A stretch of DNA of 64,000 bases from Escherichia coli. GTDB taxonomy: Bacteria; Pseudomonadota; Gammaproteobacteria; Enterobacterales; Enterobacteriaceae. Each line of letters starts with the position of its first letter. Positions within the stretch are counted from its first letter, which is position 1. The stretch is from the NCBI RefSeq assembly GCF_024298765.1, contig NZ_CP101210.1, one strand, 5' to 3'. Of the stretch, positions 12,933 to 64,000 are shown piece by piece. The translations under genes were made by a program, and so were the position numbers. The notes below the pieces were generated by a model. It saw only the letters and a program-made list of their open reading frames with translations, did not search any database and was not told the DNA's origin.

Positions 12933-13008
12933 GCCCGGATAGCTCAGTCGGTAGAGCAGGGGATTGAAAATCCCCGTGTCCTTGGTTCGATTCCGAGTCC
13001 GGGCACCA
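12933..13008 (+). tRNA. pheU: tRNA-Phe (anticodon GAA)
   Basis: 76-nt sequence GCCCGGATAGCTCAGTCGGTAGAGCAGGGGATTGAAAATCCCCGTGTCCTTGGTTCGATTCCGAGTCCGGGCACCA; anticodon loop ATTGAAAAT; identical to remembered E. coli tRNA-Phe; pheU assignment from yjdC neighbourhood. Confidence 0.97.
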
Positions 13009-55878: not shown

Positions 55879-56554
55879 TAAAAAAGTCCGTCTTCTGCTT
55901 ACCTGTTTATTTTTCTATCGCTAAGAAAACATAATTAATATTATTTTTATGTGAGCTTATGCACAAAAATAACAAAGTATCTTATCTTCTGGTAGAGATA
56001 CAGGATACAGTTTGTAGGAGCTTTCTTTTTTTGAACAATGATTTGCAGGACAGTTATGCCAACCTAGCAGAATCAGTATCACAACAATAAATGACAGATC
56101 ATACCTGAAATTTGAATTAACAGGCATCATGAATGTCAATAGTCTAAGCGGTTACTACTTACATCGCTTGCATAAATACTAAACACTGACTAGAAAAGTA
56201 TTGGATAACCCCGTCACTAAAAGTAACACTTCGGTTATTTGCTCGGAATGTATCAACGCCAAGATTGTTAGCCGTTACGCCTTATATCACTGGCGCTGAC
56301 AAATGTTTCTTTTCTAATTTACTGAACCGGCGCAGACTTACAGAAAAACACTCCGGCACCGGTGTAATGCCAGTTATAAACAATGTGAATGGAATGACGA
56401 ATCAGTCAGGAAAGAGCTACAATCTGCTGGCTGACCGGAGAGGGTCAGCAGGAAGATGAACGGTAATGTCGCCAGCACCAGGGGCAGGGCCGGGTTCCAC
56501 AATACCAGCGCCGGCATTTTGCACATTGCCAGCGTACCGGCATCACAACACGTT

Positions 56555-56728
56555 TCATGCAGCTGCTCCTCGTGATTCCTCAATTCGCTGCTGCATCCAC
56601 TGCTCCACTTCACTTTTGTACCAGCGGCTGCTGCGGCCCAGCTTGATGGGTTTCGGGAAATGGCCTTCACTGATCAGCTTGTAAAACCATTTATCTGTCA
56701 TACCGGTGAAACTGGTGATGTAGTTCAT
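56555..56728 (-). CDS. alpA: AlpA-family phage/island transcriptional regulator
   Basis: ORF track 56555..56791; internal start gives MNYITSFTGMTDKWFYKLISEGHFPKPIKLGRSSRWYKSEVEQWM, typical Phage_AlpA HTH. Confidence 0.75.
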   Translation of the reverse strand: MNYITSFTGMTDKWFYKLISEGHFPKPIKLGRSSRWYKSEVEQWMQQRIEESRGAAA

Positions 56729-56859
56729 GTCGATCAGGGGATCGTCGGCACGCAGCAACACGCAGTCGTGGCCTGTCATTGAGGTCAACATGGTCAGAAT
56801 ATCCTCTGTGAGATTTATGAAGGTTGTGCGAATGCGGGGAAAGGTGCTGAGCCGTATTC

Positions 56860-57435
56860 TCAGAACGGTCCTGCAGATCCGGGATAGCCGGGATTACCGG
56901 CGAGGCAACGGGCTTCCGGATCGCACACACCACGACGATCGCGGGCGAAATCACTGAACGCCCAGATCAAATCTTTGAGGATGTCTTCGCAGTCCGGTGA
57001 ACGACTGTCCAGCACCACATCCCGGGTTATCTGTTTCTGGTACGGTGCCGCTTCCCCCGGTGACGCGAAGCCCAGTACGTTGCTCCAGGCATCCAGAATC
57101 AGCCGGTCCAGTTCGGGGCCGTCGAAATACTCCTGTCTGACGCACAGCACCACGTGGTATTCCGGCTTTTCCGGATGACGGGTCAGGAGCCAGCAAAGGT
57201 CGCGTCCGGGTTTCGCATTCATCAGCGCACTGACGGTTTCGATAAAATCCATACCAAACCAGGTCTGTCTGCTGTTGAAGGCGTTGTCATGTTCCCACGG
57301 CAGACGAAGCAGGATCCGCCGTATCCGTGAGCCGGACTGCTCACGCAGCGCACGCTCAAGGACGCCGATGACTTTGTTCTGATAAGATGGCCAGAAGGGT
57401 GCCAGGCTATAGTCGAAATAAGGAATAGCATTCAT
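56860..57435 (-). CDS. YfjJ/YagK (inovirus Gp2-like) family protein
   Basis: ORF track 56860..57567; start at MNAIPYFDYSLAPFW gives about 191 aa; downstream of alpA as in CP4-57-type islands. Confidence 0.6.
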   Translation of the reverse strand: MNAIPYFDYSLAPFWPSYQNKVIGVLERALREQSGSRIRRILLRLPWEHDNAFNSRQTWFGMDFIETVSALMNAKPGRDLCWLLTRHPEKPEYHVVLCVRQEYFDGPELDRLILDAWSNVLGFASPGEAAPYQKQITRDVVLDSRSPDCEDILKDLIWAFSDFARDRRGVCDPEARCLAGNPGYPGSAGPF

Positions 57436-57681
57436 AAGATATGTTCCGTTATGCGCAGCCCACAATGCGTCCTGCCCGTGAATGAGCTGACGTGTTATGG
57501 CTTGCGGATGAGATTGATGGAATAAGTGAAGAACTGAAGCAGAACGGGAAGATAAGGGACAGAACACCGGATTCAGGTTCAGGATGAATGATCTCCGTTG
57601 ACTTCAGTTCACATCATTAATCAATGCGGTAAGTTTTTACCGACGGAGTGTTTCCAGGAGCGGAGGCTCAGGCCTTAAGCT

Positions 57682-58248
57682 TCAGAAGTGAGGCTTACGA
57701 GGACGCCCTGCAGCAGGACGTTCAGGAACTTCATTGCAGCCGTAGGCACACAGCCCGTCTTTTTGTTCTTCTTTCGCCAGATAATGCAGGGCACCGCGAA
57801 TATTATCGATGCTTTCAGGATCGTTGTGGCGCACAGGAATGTTGATGTTGTATGCATAATGCGGCTGATATGTACAGCGGTGCGCCGAACCACAGTTATA
57901 CGTAATTGCCTGCCAGCATTCCGCTATCCGCTCCGCAAAGGGATATATTTTTTTAACCCTCTGACGATCGATCCAGAAAACGACATGCGCATGAAAACCA
58001 TGATCAGCCGTCCATTCAATCACCCAGAAGAAACCAACGATATTTTCAAATTGTTCCACCTGCTCCAGCAGCATACGCAACTGTAATTCAAGCCAGCGAT
58101 GATCAGGTTGTAAGAAATCGGGCGTATCTTTCCTGTAGAAGAAATCCATCCGTAAGGCCCGCAGGCAGGAATAGCGTGCCATCATTTGATTGATGTGATT
58201 GTCAAGTAAAGCGGTAAAAAACCAGTTTGGTGTGTAAGATTTAGGCAT
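57682..58248 (-). CDS. YfjJ/YagK (inovirus Gp2-like) family protein
   Basis: 188-aa ORF MPKSYTPNWFFTALLDNHINQMMARYSCLRALRMDFFYRKD...; paralogue of 56860..57435 and 61862..62593. Confidence 0.6.
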   Translation of the reverse strand: MPKSYTPNWFFTALLDNHINQMMARYSCLRALRMDFFYRKDTPDFLQPDHRWLELQLRMLLEQVEQFENIVGFFWVIEWTADHGFHAHVVFWIDRQRVKKIYPFAERIAECWQAITYNCGSAHRCTYQPHYAYNINIPVRHNDPESIDNIRGALHYLAKEEQKDGLCAYGCNEVPERPAAGRPRKPHF

Positions 58249-59665
58249 GTTGATGACTCCTGAAAGTTAATGATGTTTTAAGCTCTGTGAGCGAATTAAT
58301 GCTTTCGCTCATAATCAGATCTAAAACGGTAATAACTTACAGATGGTATTTATCAGGCATGCTGTAACAGAATGGATACGACGGATTATTAACGACACAC
58401 AGCGTTGTGCTGAAGGGTATGAGTTATCTGATGGCATTGTCTATAGAGATGAGATAAACGAGGTGCGAAGAAAATACAGATTCAATACAACACAGTGAAA
58501 TACAGAAAAATACGAACTGTAATCCCGCTGCCAGGCGGTTAGGAAACATATTACAACTATAAGCTCATGATTTGTAAATTTGCTCTCAGTGAGTCTGAAA
58601 AAACGTTTATAAGGTCACCACAATAAACTCACACGCGCTTATTCAATCTGTTTTCCAGGATATGAACGTTAACGACACACGATAGCATAAGACAACATAC
58701 AATGGATGAATAATTTTCACCCAGTACCTTAAACAATACAACCGGCAACAAATATAATCAGAAATTCACTCTGTTAATTCTGTTGTTTATCCTGCGCTGT
58801 TAAACATGACGGAATCATGGATACCTTATCAAAGAGTAAACATTCAGTTAATCTGTGATGACAGAGAAATTGTTTCCAACCAGAATAGTTAAAACACTTC
58901 AGATAAACAATCATTGTTAAGCAAATACAGTTCATGATGGATAAGATTAAAATCAATTGCTGTTTCACTGAAAATGAGAACAGATGGATATCAGCAATAG
59001 CGTAGTAGAGAATAACTTATCCGAACATCATATGAGTTACAGTAATTATGATTGAGGGGGATGGAGTGGATACGATAACAAGAGTAAATAAAGACAGAGT
59101 AAAAGTAAAGGGCAAGTGTAATAATAGTAATAAACCTAAATTAAAATTATCCATGTTTGATGTAAAAATAATAATATACTGACAACCATGAAGGTAAGAA
59201 AAAGAGAGTGCAGGTATCAGGAAGATCTCAGGATATGAAGATTCCCACAGCACAGATTTAAAATTAGTCGAATATAATAAATTTAAAAACCTTAATTAAA
59301 ATGTAATCTCATCCATGGTTAACATGCTCCTGAAAAGGAAAGTTACAAATACCGTATGCTACCAACTAATTACAACAATGATATATGTACATTCAGTAAG
59401 AATACAGATAAAATATTAATACCAACTTCCAGTATCAAGATCGTATCGCGAACTTCAGATGCGCTATGAGGCAGTTCAATTTTTAACTTTCGTTTTCCTC
59501 TTCCTCCCTGGCTTCATATGCATAAGCGACTTGAAAGACCCGATGATAGTTACAATTTCAGGTTGTGGCATGACGATCAATTTGTAACTGAAACAATGAA
59601 CGGTAACGCTGCCATATAAACATCAAAATGCGAGCATTACAGCGACATTGAACCGATTAGATGTA

Positions 59666-60406
59666 TCACTCATAATCAGAACAAGATGATGTATCCTGAG
59701 ATATAAGAAAATCATCAAGAGAACCTCCGGCTTTTATTGCTTCTGCAATAACATTAGGCCGACGACCTTGTCCACTCCAGTACATTGTTTGACCGTTATA
59801 CTCATATCTGTATTTATGCCCTCCTGACACACTTTTTCTGCCTGCCTGTAATTTTTTGCCAAATTCACGTTCGTCGATCATGGTAATGATATAGCGACGC
59901 ATTTCACCCATTCTGAGCTCAATGGCGTCCATCCCAATGAGCTCACCGGTCTTTACCAGACGGTAGTGCTTTGGCCGGTGGGGTTTGGCGGTTCGCTTTT
60001 TGACAAGCAGAGCCTTACCCCGCGAGCTCAGACGTACTGGTACCATCCGCATTTTATCGTGTGCGGTGGCGATCATTCTGCCGATGGTGGAAACACTCGG
60101 GCAGGTCAGATGGCGCTGTGCGCACCAGGGCTTCAGGCGAACAAAAATCTGCTCTTTACCGAGGTTTGGCAGCTCTGTCCTGAGGCGTCGAATCTCTTTC
60201 AGCACATCGGGATGCCAGTGCTTTTTTCGTCGCACCAGAGGTGCCTTACTGTGCGGGATTAGCCCCTCAGGTCCTCCCTTGTTCAGTAACTGACGCCACC
60301 AGTAAAGCGTGCGGCAGGACACGCCAAAGGCTTCAGAAGCCGCAGAAATACCGTGTTTATCCCAGAAGTGCAGAGCCTTCATTCTCATTGTTGCTATATC
60401 AGCCAT
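59666..60406 (-). pseudogene. transposase-like gene fragment (HTH plus start of integrase core), probably degenerate
   Basis: ORF track 59666..60421; HTH region (FGVSCRTLYWWRQLL) then partial rve-like start (GMDAIELRMGEMRRYIITMID) but no complete catalytic core. Confidence 0.4.
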
Positions 60407-60899
60407 CACTGAAAGCCTCAACGCATAATCGGCCGTTTAGGATAGCCAACCATCAGATGCTGCATTTGCATAGTGCAATCTCCCCTTACTTATCCGGAGG
60501 CAATTGCAATATCTCTGTGAACTTACACACAGGTATAATCAATAAGGGCGTACGGAGATTGCCCGTTATTGCTGCAGGATCGGCAGACTGGTTCCCGTCC
60601 TTGCGCATATAACTGTACAACCACAGAGAAAAGCATCAATGCACGCTTTATGTTGCGTCAGGGCAGCGAACGACTCCTTTTGTTGACGACACATATCACC
60701 TTCTGTACTGCCAATTATGGCATTCAGCGTCTCCCCGAGTTTTAAGCTCCTGCTCTTACGAACCAGCGACAAGCAATAAATAACTATGGCAATGAATCTA
60801 ATAACAGCATAAATATGAGACTCATCGATACTCATCGTGATTAGTATAATCGGGGCAGAATTATATTCACTGTCTGATTTATTATTGAGTTAAATATAA

Positions 60900-61352
60900 T
60901 TAAAGTGTTCTCAAAAGTCTGGCTGGATTACCGGCATACACGCCTTTTACCAGCACGGGCTTTGTAACCACACTACCAGCACCAATCACTGCTCCACTGC
61001 AAATTTCTGTGGTTAAAATGGTCGCTCCGCTACCCACTGTTACAGTGTTACCTAATACGATGCGTATCCAGCTTTCTGCAGAGGCATCGGGACCACCACA
61101 CTTAAAAAGATCATTAGCAAAAGTTACGCCATGACCGATGAAACAGCCATCACCTAAAATGACGTTCTCACAGATGAAACTGTGGGACTGAATTCGGCTC
61201 CGGTTGCCAATGATACATCCCTTCTGTATTTCCACAAAGGGACCGATAAAAACATCATCCCCCAGTTCACATTCATAGAGGTTTACTGGCATGACGACTT
61301 TCACATTTTCACCAAATTTCACATCACGAATGCGGCTGTCAATAACGTTCAT
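60900..61352 (-). CDS. hexapeptide-repeat (left-handed beta-helix) acetyltransferase
   Basis: 150-aa ORF with tandem [LIV]-G-x-x-x-x hexapeptide repeats (IGDGCFIGHGVTF, LGNTVTVGSGATI, SGAVIGAGSVV). Confidence 0.75.
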   Translation of the reverse strand: MNVIDSRIRDVKFGENVKVVMPVNLYECELGDDVFIGPFVEIQKGCIIGNRSRIQSHSFICENVILGDGCFIGHGVTFANDLFKCGGPDASAESWIRIVLGNTVTVGSGATILTTEICSGAVIGAGSVVTKPVLVKGVYAGNPARLLRTL

Positions 61353-61861: not shown

Positions 61862-62593
61862 TCACCTGCCATCCAGCAAACGCCCCGGCCCACGACTGCA
61901 ACCATAATTACGTTGCCCGGAACCGTCATGCTGCTTCGTCTCATATTTCACGAGATAACTGGCTCTGTTCCGGGCTTTCTGCATCGCTTCCACATCACCA
62001 CGCTTGATCCAGAGAACAGCGGCTTCACCAGACTTTTTGTCTGAAGCCTTCCAGGTATCAGAACATCCACCCGACAAAGGCGTGTCATCGGAAGAAGGGC
62101 GAACATCAGACGATGCTGGTTTACGGGAAGGCGTCCACCTGGAAAAATGGACCAGGCCATCGCCTTGCCAGGGCTCAAGATGCAGGGCGCTGCACCATGC
62201 CTCCTGGATCATCGTCGCCAGCGAAGACGGTTCGCTGAAATCCCCGAGCGAGCACCAGGTATCTTTGTTGAGCAGTAATATCACGTGATAATGTTTCCTG
62301 CCATACATCTTGCCGAACTCCCGGCACCAGAAATAACCCAGGCTGGTTGCATGCACACGCTGATTGGCACATCTTTTTTTCCGCTGGTAAGCCTGAATTT
62401 TGGCTTTCAGGGATGCAAAAAAACGAGAAATCACCGCTGAATCCGGATCGGGATCCATGATGGTGACAGGCATATACTCAGGGAAACGTAAATCCACCCG
62501 GATTAACGAGACGGCACGGTGCTGCGCCAGGGCACTGTCGAGAAGGCTGTCAAAACGGGATAACCAGTAAGCATTGTGTATTGGTTGATTCAT
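61862..62593 (-). CDS. YfjJ/YagK (inovirus Gp2-like) family protein
   Basis: 243-aa ORF MNQPIHNAYWLSRFDSLLDSALAQHRAVSLIRVDLRFPEY...; CP4-like island backbone family. Confidence 0.6.
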   Translation of the reverse strand: MNQPIHNAYWLSRFDSLLDSALAQHRAVSLIRVDLRFPEYMPVTIMDPDPDSAVISRFFASLKAKIQAYQRKKRCANQRVHATSLGYFWCREFGKMYGRKHYHVILLLNKDTWCSLGDFSEPSSLATMIQEAWCSALHLEPWQGDGLVHFSRWTPSRKPASSDVRPSSDDTPLSGGCSDTWKASDKKSGEAAVLWIKRGDVEAMQKARNRASYLVKYETKQHDGSGQRNYGCSRGPGRLLDGR

Positions 62594-62984
62594 GATGAGA
62601 GATCTCCGTTGATTTGGATTGACTTCACATCATTAATCAACGCAGTAAAACTTTACGGCATCCGACATTGAGCAATACTACAACTCTCTGATTAAGAGTG
62701 ATTGAAACGGAACAAACCATCCCGGAACGAAAAGATAATCCTGCACACAGCAGCAAAATACGCAACAACAGCATGAATGGATTTAAAAACGACATGGACG
62801 ACGAGAAAAGTCTGAAGGGAAAAGGAGCCACAGAACATTCGAACAAAACACCAGAAATGCAACCAGAACGCTTCCTGGCAATGCAAATCAACAACAACGC
62901 CAAAACCTACAACTTAATCACACAACTCAATCACGGATGCGAATGACACGCTTAAAACCTGTTTACAGATAACGCCGTAACACG

Positions 62985-63026
62985 ATCATCACCATCACCA
63001 TCACCATCACCATCACCATCACCATC
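62985..63026. repeat. hexanucleotide microsatellite (ATCACC/CATCAC) of about 6.7 units
   Basis: Perfect tandem atcacc repeats 62988..63023 with partial flanking units; not in any long ORF. Confidence 0.9.
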
Positions 63027-63460
63027 AGAATCGATTTTCTCATCCCGAAAATGTTACGTTTCACTACGCACCATAAAAACGATTAACCATCGATAACGTA
63101 AATCTCATCTGAATCAAAACACCAAAACCGTTCATCACACTTTCGCAATGCAAGAAGAAACCTCATGACAAAAAGAATGACCTTACACGGAAAAGAAAAA
63201 CGTCAGGAATCGTTAATGCCTCAATCTGATTGTTATCAAAACATCCAGAAAGTCGTTTAACAGAATCGTCGTAAGCACATCGAAAAGAACGTCAGATTAC
63301 TTCAGGAAAGTTCGGGTTGATTTAGCGTAAAGATACTTTTCTCAAGCTAACGTCGAAACTCGAAATCTCAGGAAAGGTTAAACGTAACATCAGTAAAATC
63401 GAATAGCAGATTGATTGCTTAAACAGAAAGGTTTTACAGCAGCATTAAACTGATTTAGTT

Positions 63461-63494
63461 AACGTAAAGATTTACTAAACGTAAAGATTTACTA
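63461..63494. repeat. two perfect tandem copies of a 17-bp unit (acgtaaagatttactaa)
   Basis: Direct tandem duplication; related copies (ttagcgtaaagatac, ttagttaacgtaaagat) nearby at about 63316 and 63455. Confidence 0.85.
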
Positions 63495-64000
63495 AACTGG
63501 ATGTGTATCAGATCAAACAATGTGTACAGCAATGCTTAATGAAAATACTTGTAGAATTGTTTATGAGAAAGCGTGTATAACACTTACTGAAATGCTTAGT
63601 TAAATACGTGTATGTTTGGTAAAACACTTAAGTAAAATACGTGTATAGTACCATTCCCGACATTCTCAACATCTTCAGACATCCATGCAGACTGAGTGTT
63701 GATTTCAGTTTTTCACGGCCAGCATGGATCTTTACTGTTTAAAAAACATACAGATTTACTCTGAAATTATTTACCCAGGCCTCCCTGAAAAGACCATCCG
63801 GAGCATCCCGTTCGTCAGCTTCCATGTTGTCTTTTACCCCGGAAAGTGATCGCATTTTCCAGCCAGAATGACAGCCATACTGATTATGACGTCTCTCCGG
63901 CCCCTTCACATATAACATTCATGTCAGTCATTTCTTACTGCCTCACTCACCGGAATTCTCCATGCCGGATGAAGCAATTGTTCTGAACTGAGCAGAAGCA

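Follow-up and report, generated by a model that had tools for sequence, protein, structure and literature searches.

The window (the whole 64,000-nt stretch of Escherichia coli DNA that was analysed) carries a tRNA-Phe gene at 12933–13008. The locus of strain ACN002 is 99.9% identical, and the region downstream of the tRNA-Phe gene is a genomic island, which in ACN002 contains an integrase, IS elements, a type I restriction system, the microcin H47 cluster and a yeeU/antirestriction/DUF905-type (yeeU/cbtA-type) module. The segment considered here, 58250–59660, is found ≈45 kb inside this tRNA-Phe-associated microcin H47 island, which bears out the suggestion of the first-pass annotation that it was horizontally acquired. 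No paper on the element described below was found in the literature, where the neighbouring 'inovirus Gp2' gene is mentioned only in passing. The following features were recognized in and around the segment:

57682–58248, minus strand: yfjJ-like gene, 188 aa, 'inovirus-type Gp2 protein' in RefSeq (ORF list and the 99.9% identical annotated locus)
58249–59163, minus strand: non-coding element of ≈915 nt directly upstream of the yfjJ-like gene (megablast and allele comparison)
58249–58395, minus strand: proximal conserved block, 92–95% identity across 13 alleles
58396–59037, no strand assigned: central mosaic non-coding region, no conserved ORF or RNA structure
59038–59126, minus strand: tract hypervariable in length and sequence, mean column identity 0.39
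59117–59156, minus strand: distal conserved block, gene-sense AATTTAGGTTTATTACTAT(T/A)ATTA, 92% identity across alleles, beside hypervariable DNA
59164–59463, no strand assigned: lineage-specific AT-rich filler, 31% G+C, in ≈147 genomes and this island variant only
59464–59665, minus strand: 3′ flanking region of an H-NS-paralogue gene, 88% identity
59666–60421, minus strand: 251-aa open frame on the right flank (ORF list and Pfam)

The yfjJ-like gene is the first gene of its module and is followed by a hypothetical gene (≈190 aa) and a gene for an AlpA-family HTH protein. The yfjJ-like protein gives sub-threshold Pfam matches to REP_ORF2-G2P (1e-5) and YagK_YfjJ_C (5e-4), and some sources label the YfjJ family as 'rolling circle replication-associated'. 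Among 80 yfjJ-family members, conservation reaches at least 90% at residues H86 and H88 (in FHAHVV), K159 and K163, and in the four sequences compared the tyrosines of Y-L-A-K are aligned; the family retains both HUH histidines and the Y-x-x-K lysines. Upstream of a second yfjJ-family gene, the window has a similar unannotated region of ≈1 kb without a C-rich gene-sense tract, so that such a tract is no general trait of these genes.

On the other side, the N-terminal part of the 251-aa frame matches IS481-type transposase HTH domains, while an H-NS linker and C-terminal domain make up its last ≈67 residues (Pfam Histone_HNS, E = 7e-12). The H-NS-paralogue gene is truncated here, and its residues 48–116 (59669–59869) are fused in frame to an IS481-type transposase N-terminus. 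RefSeq treats the frame as two pseudogene fragments. The two flanking genes named in the first-pass annotation do adjoin the segment, but what it called a transposase-like fragment is this in-frame chimera with part of an H-NS paralogue.

The G+C content of 58250–59660 is 34.8%, compared with 46.8% across the window, 47% in the yfjJ-like gene and 50% in the transposase/H-NS ORF. With A, T, G and C at 38.0, 27.2, 18.1 and 16.7%, the segment falls within the lowest 5.4% of 1,411-nt windows. It is AT-rich as first described, but 'very high' is too strong a wording for the A+T content, as other parts of the window go down to 29.6% G+C. ORFs with a start codon reach at most 78 aa. The longest frame from stop to stop is 92 aa, as against 86 ± 19 aa in composition-matched shuffles, and the ORF content is therefore that of non-coding DNA. 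None of the small ORFs of the ≈915-nt element is preserved between alleles because indels of 1, 2, 4, 13 and 14 nt interrupt them. Among the 80 matches listed, of 1,574 matching E. coli records, no RefSeq/PGAP feature lies under the segment. The description of the segment as poor in ORFs thus stands.

The possibility of a decayed gene, also raised in the first-pass annotation, found no support. A Pfam scan in six frames gave one hit only, at chance level (E = 0.042). A relaxed BLASTX-type search with the concatenated six-frame translation against 5.8 billion proteins returned nothing at E ≤ 1e-3, neither an intact ORF nor a degraded gene, and tests with the yfjJ family, the upstream gene and H-NS gave only sub-significant fragments. 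A decayed version of the 197–207-aa gene that precedes yfjJ-like genes in other genera was rejected (best tblastn E = 1.4). The same applies to a decayed H-NS paralogue inside the element, for which only the known fragment at 59669–59869 was matched. A 32-nt direct repeat with 72% identity (58288–58319 and 59649–59680) is near the estimated chance expectation.

A more specific version would see in the bulk of the element a wrecked tandem yfjJ-like paralogue on the minus strand, decayed past easy recognition. The module does contain several yfjJ-family paralogues, and the minus-strand translation of 58523–58564 (AYSCNMFPNRLAAG) is identical in 9 of 14 residues to the C-terminus of the neighbouring protein (AYGCNEVPERPAAG; tblastn E = 0.14), with seven of the codon differences in the match being synonymous third-base changes. 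A second weak hit, over the HUH region, is roughly collinear with the first, but the distance between them is wrong by ≈100 nt. The distal boundary of the element furthermore repeats the start-codon context TCATCAA(A)CATG. In a frameshift-tolerant profile alignment the window allele scored above 98% of shuffles (p = 0.02), whereas four other alleles gave p = 0.09–0.91 (uncorrected for multiple tests), and the C-terminal match is confined to the window/L002 allele. Scores with the yfjJ-family HMM were at most 4 bits, all of them sub-significant, and neither Pfam nor the six-frame search of 5.8 billion proteins pointed to a paralogue. We regard such a wreck as highly unlikely.

Comparison with complete genomes showed that the segment consists of three pieces with separate histories, namely 58249–59163, 59164–59463 and 59464–59665. 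Using megablast, the whole segment was found in only 138 of 5,426 complete E. coli genomes, whereas its first ≈810–920 nt were matched in 1,572 (≈29%). In 12 diverged copies the yfjJ-like start codon was in every case the point where the match began, and the conserved part stopped at ≈59163, beyond which the neighbours vary (a TIR-domain gene, dsdA, a sugar kinase, an H-NS paralogue or a YfjI-family gene). Plasmid copies of the element are island fragments, and no copies were found in the phage collection or in viral contigs. The first-pass annotation treated the segment as one feature; two thirds of it belong to a conserved and widespread element that lies upstream of the yfjJ-like operon.

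The filler at 59164–59463 gave no Pfam or protein match. The full stretch 59164–59665 occurs in ≈147 genomes, and 59464–59665 alone in a further ≈136. This last piece is 88% identical to the 198–200 nt right after the stop codon of an intact H-NS-family gene, which is present with the homologous 3′ flank in O157:H7 86-24 and ≈135 other genomes. The filler and the 3′ flank of the disrupted H-NS-paralogue gene (59164–59665) are rearrangement debris, and the segment as such is ordinary non-coding junction DNA within a mosaic tRNA-Phe genomic island.

To follow the variation within the element, 12 diverged copies were compared alongside the window copy, which gives 13 alleles. Among alleles, the median dS of the yfjJ-like gene is 0.105. 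Against this value, the 135 nt nearest the start codon have changed slowly (K = 0.038), whereas the ≈700-nt core, with K = 0.173, lies above the gene dS and shows clear recombination mosaics. Identity between alleles is 62–90% in the central region while the adjacent gene is 91–100% identical. Clear constraint is confined to the proximal block (58249–58395), and most of the element is not under sequence-specific selection.

The proximal block contains a Shine-Dalgarno sequence, AGGAGT, at 58256–58261 and an inverted repeat, TGAGCGAA-N8-TTCGCTCA (58288–58295 and 58304–58311), which precedes the start codon by 40–60 nt. Two stem positions vary among the alleles (pairs 1074–1095 and 1076–1093), from G to A on the plus strand and hence from C to U on the minus strand, so that G-U pairing is kept only in gene-sense RNA. 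The proximal block is probably a 5′ UTR, an operator or a proximal promoter. In the central region there are conserved islands at 58436–58469, 58817–58843 and 58883–58910, but the indels are not multiples of three and natural variants lack 58378–58700. In metagenome loci the leader varies from 354 to 1,031 nt in length. The hypervariable tract that follows (59038–59126) is pyrimidine-rich, C-rich and G-poor in the gene sense, with CTCCACCTT-type repeats in some alleles (visible in L012).

A small RNA had likewise been suggested for the segment, and the element might encode an unannotated functional RNA, either as a divergent plus-strand transcript from ≈58893 or as a regulatory leader RNA with a role beyond spacing. 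A plus-strand promoter-like sequence, ATGACA-N17-CAGAAT (58858–58886), is found at the homologous place in the window copy and in L003, L009 and L010. Both hexamers are kept in most alleles while the spacer varies, and the conserved island 58883–58910 is located at the predicted plus-strand start. Some islands also have a ProQ/FinO-family gene within the same module. The plus strand shows a persistent excess of purines and of A (A 38%, T 27%) and two of its promoter-like sites recur in alleles, and given this there may be divergent transcription. However, promoter-like sites occur at chance density: promoter prediction, a check proposed in the first-pass annotation, gave 6 sites where 7.3 ± 2.4 were expected. 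Intrinsic terminator-like sites common to the window copy, L003, L009 and L010 were not found, and the putative transcript is broken by large natural indels and by the hypervariable tract.

Searches for a known or structured RNA were also negative. Rfam 15 gave nothing at E ≤ 1 within 58250–59660. The sole Rfam hit in 56000–61000 was a chance snoRNA match at 60397–60460. The consensus that RNAalifold derived from the 13 alleles is weak (−73 kcal/mol over 1,135 columns, of which covariation contributes a term of −4.6), and double changes were seen in 11 of 197 pairs. None of the 120-column windows on either strand stood clearly above column-shuffled alignments (best z = −2.9). Among windows with a high structure conservation index, the top one (0.80, z = −2.7) lies at the proximal end and contains the hairpin at 58288–58311. 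A large structured RNA was rejected on the weak RNAalifold consensus and the shuffle tests, and no conserved structure was found on either strand that would speak for a small one. An RfaH ops element (GGCGGTTAG) at 58535 was discarded as well, being imperfect, on the plus strand and not conserved in other alleles. We consider a functional RNA decidedly unlikely; 58250–59660 is non-coding, with no gene or recognisable RNA inside.

The distal conserved block (59117–59156) carries a −10-like hexamer, which is TATTAT in the window (59126–59121) and TATAAT in most alleles and in all other genera. With nhmmer and alignment, homologues of the block were identified upstream of yfjJ-like genes in Enterobacter, Citrobacter, Salmonella diarizonae, Mixta and a MAG. 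The cross-genus nhmmer matches are weak but consistent in position, at 100–165 nt upstream of yfjJ-like genes with ≈50% protein identity. Alignment across the genera revealed a common block of ≈35 nt, TAATTTAGGTTNATTANTATAATTA, followed by CACTCCCTTTTT. An exact-pattern scan of metagenome contigs placed a yfjJ-like gene downstream on the same strand in 62 of the 80 readable loci; the others were mostly truncated contigs, with five unrelated AT-rich chance matches. As the TATAAT-type hexamer reads toward the gene, the block is most simply a promoter. We found no convincing −35 sequence, a consensus promoter scan did not call the block, and the −10 of the window is TATTAT. The yfjJ-like operon is probably transcribed from this block, which also marks where the conserved element ends on its far side.

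The distance from the block to the gene differs between groups. It is 125–151 nt in relatives at about 47–57% protein identity (this class counts five loci with corrected distance), and 616–1,031 nt for the 81–100% identical proteins of the E. coli clade, with a single variant of 354 nt. The short leaders of Enterobacter, Citrobacter, S. diarizonae and Mixta resemble those of the E. coli clade in having the ≈35-nt block, the sequence following it and then a C-rich tract. They differ in that the block lies close to the start codon and behind the 197–207-aa gene. In some short-leader loci the arms GGGGAGTG and CACTCCCC of an inverted repeat enclose the block and a U run comes next, a terminator-like arrangement; the E. 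coli clade is without this repeat. What is new here is the presence of a promoter-like block near yfjJ-like genes in other genera and far from the gene in the E. coli clade.

Composition after the block is conserved in spite of the lack of sequence conservation. Over the 120 nt that come after the block, every one of the 13 E. coli alleles has a C/G ratio of 2.1–8.2 and 67–78% pyrimidine; in seven short-leader loci, of which six belong to other genera or MAGs, the C/G ratio there is 1.9–3.2. Within the window, the ratio is 2.2–3.5 for 59140–58985 in the gene sense.

A related known setting is found in E. coli K-12, where yfjJ and yagK of the cryptic P4-like prophages CP4-57 and CP4-6 belong to the same YagK/YfjJ family and likewise have an AlpA-family regulator and a YfjI-type DUF3987 protein as neighbours. 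In K-12 the gaps are short (153 nt for yfjI-yfjJ and 272 nt for yagL-yagK), and nhmmer did not detect the element at either locus. The gene order also differs, being alpA-yfjI-yfjJ in K-12 and (yfjI)-[0.9–1.5 kb non-coding]-yfjJ-like-hypothetical-alpA here.

With such neighbours, the element might be a DNA site acting in cis, as an origin of replication, a nick site or an origin of transfer, on which the YfjJ-like protein with its HUH motif and the helicase-like YfjI protein (DUF3987) would work. P4-like satellites and PICIs have their replication origin next to their own primase/helicase gene, downstream of it in the case of the helicase. The element resembles these origins as an AT-rich non-coding stretch in an int/alpA-type island, and it is positioned directly downstream of yfjI, the YfjI-type helicase-like gene, in four loci. 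The HUH and Y-x-x-K residues retained by the YfjJ family would also fit, as would the GC-rich inverted repeat flanking the conserved block in Enterobacter-type loci, but this repeat is missing from the E. coli, Salmonella and L027 copies. The heptamer ATGGATA occurs five times in the element (four times in 58396–59037), at conserved positions and ≈50-fold above the rest of the window, but after allowing for all 7-mers its count has P = 0.11, and it was rejected as an iteron. In contrast to satellite and PICI origins, the element has no iteron array or tandem repeat families, and internal 9–12-mer repeats are as numerous as by chance. DnaA-box-like sites are not enriched (p = 0.3–1.0), and a DnaA-box cluster or origin was rejected on this basis. 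The central region is unconstrained and dispensable, as natural deletions show, its core evolves faster than synonymous sites, and the element was not found in the phage or viral-contig collections. A role as origin, nick site or transfer origin is most improbable.

The reading we prefer, to which we give a probability of roughly 60%, is that 58249–59163 is an expanded and mostly unconstrained leader/regulatory region of the yfjJ-like/AlpA operon, the segment being otherwise filler and H-NS-paralogue flank. In its favour are, among other findings, the linkage of the distal block to the gene across genera, the −10-like hexamer that points toward the gene, the C excess after the block and the hairpin changes that keep pairing in gene-sense RNA only. 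The lack of a good −35, the chance-level number of promoter-like sites, the recurrent plus-strand sites, the H-NS motif count and the second yfjJ-family gene without a C-rich tract count against it. Promoter activity, a sense transcript and the involvement of H-NS or Rho are inferred. In this leader reading the distal block is the conserved cis element of yfjJ-like genes, which in other genera is ≈130 nt from the start codon, and in the E. coli clade ≈500–900 nt of poorly constrained AT-rich DNA now separates it from the gene. If the block acts as a promoter, the operon transcript would have a leader of ≈870 nt with no conserved ORF, of which the first ≈120 nt would be C-rich and G-poor.

In xenogeneic silencing, H-NS silences AT-rich regulatory DNA of genomic islands, together with Rho-dependent termination of foreign transcripts. 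The segment shares several features with regions silenced in this way. It is borne on an island, has 35% G+C as against ≈47% around it and contains no conserved ORF; its location and composition are both as expected of H-NS-silenced acquired DNA. It is also found upstream of an island regulatory operon, has a putative leader with a C-rich, G-poor tract and is adjoined by an H-NS paralogue. In contrast to such regions, the H-NS high-affinity motif TCGATAAATT (≤2 mismatches) is not enriched, with 3 occurrences as against 3.3 ± 1.8 in shuffles, and silencing is here an expectation. Silencing of the segment by H-NS, as proposed in the first-pass annotation, and possibly with Rho, is plausible. The tract 59038–59126 could be a Rho-utilisation-like sequence. 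Its C-rich, G-poor composition, as would be expected where Rho is loaded, fits premature termination acting together with H-NS, without being proof of it. With a leader that starts C-rich and G-poor and is AT-rich, the operon would lend itself to binding by H-NS and to premature termination by Rho, and the combined effect would be foreign-DNA silencing of the yfjJ-like, hypothetical and AlpA-family HTH genes.

It is conceivable, though unlikely, that the ≈915-nt element goes beyond this and forms a clade-specific silencing or switch module, in which a promoter block, a Rho-loading tract and H-NS-binding DNA would keep the operon off until an antitermination or anti-silencing signal arrives. 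If true, such a switch module would gate the excision or replication of an island class that is present in about 29% of complete E. coli genomes.

For annotation, roughly 1,600–1,900 complete E. coli genomes have in conserved form the ≈0.9 kb preceding yfjJ-like genes and the ≈1 kb preceding the paralogue, and both regions can safely stay without gene calls. In several enterobacterial genera, yfjJ-like genes are marked by the short promoter-like block, which offers a handle on the control of uncharacterised modules with an HUH motif and AlpA in tRNA-associated islands.

The products of two genes in the window, at 57682–58248 and 61862–62593, belong with K-12 YfjJ and YagK to the YagK/YfjJ ('inovirus Gp2') family, for which the literature searched apparently holds no characterisation. 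Across an alignment of 80 sequences, the family retains an R-x-D motif, both histidines in H-hydrophobic-H and the Y-x-x-K lysines; the tyrosine of this last motif is aligned in the four sequences displayed. Together these motifs make up the HUH rolling-circle endonuclease signature. The features around the two genes are as follows.

56860–57567, minus strand: 235-aa hypothetical gene
58372, 58817, 58937 and 58984, plus strand: ATGGATA copies in the first element
59066: GTGGATA variant in the first element
59148, inverted: ATGGATA copy in the first element
59666–60421, minus strand: 251-aa uninterrupted open frame with an IS481-type transposase part and an H-NS paralogue part
61862–62593, minus strand: second YagK/YfjJ-family gene
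62594–63650: second ≈1-kb A/C-rich stretch, immediately upstream of the second YagK/YfjJ-family gene
62987–63027: (CATCAC)x6.8 repeat inside the second stretch
63452–63497: 17-nt tandem repeat inside the second stretch

The second stretch has a G+C content of 37.6% and is kept in 1,877 of 5,426 E. coli genomes. Most of the matches listed carry no annotation there, with an occasional 'hypothetical protein'. No similarity to the first element, the ≈915-nt non-coding DNA at 58249–59163, was detected with nhmmer. Reading of the sequences showed that two upstream regions of ≈70 nt, that of the 235-aa hypothetical gene at 57568–57640 and that of the second yfjJ-family gene at 62594–62665, are clearly related, having in common GATCTCCGTTGA...TTCACATCATTAATCAA(T/C)GC. 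This relatedness suggests two paralogous units with a common 5' region.

The first element contains five ATGGATA copies in 915 nt, compared with seven in the remaining 63 kb of the window, an excess that is not significant after correction for all 7-mers. The positions are kept in most alleles of the element, and a natural deletion of 323 nt fuses two ATGGAT copies (58372/58702). At the homologues of its promoter-like far end in six loci from other genomes (L017–L022, of Enterobacter, Citrobacter and Mixta type), a perfect inverted repeat, GGGGAGTG...CACTCCCC, surrounds the block (for example L022 2826–2880) and is followed by a U run. The repeat is predicted to form a long hairpin (-18 kcal/mol) directly after the upstream 197-aa gene, and a terminator and a promoter may be nested here.

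The N-terminal region of the 251-aa frame is an IS481-type transposase HTH, and the other part corresponds to residues 48–116 of an H-NS paralogue, which comprise its linker and its DNA-binding C-terminal domain (Pfam Histone_HNS, E = 7e-12). RefSeq treats the frame as two pseudogene fragments. If it is a fusion protein, the product would lack the H-NS dimerisation domain.

The module, the island gene set around the yfjJ-like, hypothetical and AlpA-family genes, also varies. A small ProQ/FinO-family gene (114 aa) adjoins the yfjJ-family paralogue in L004, L009 and L011, three compared loci, left of the AlpA gene. None is annotated in the module at the near-identical locus of strain ACN002, where the module ends early, beside the microcin glycosyltransferase gene. 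A passage in a study of E. coli Nissle in the mouse gut (bioRxiv 10.1101/364505), which may concern another locus, hints that such modules can be amplified.
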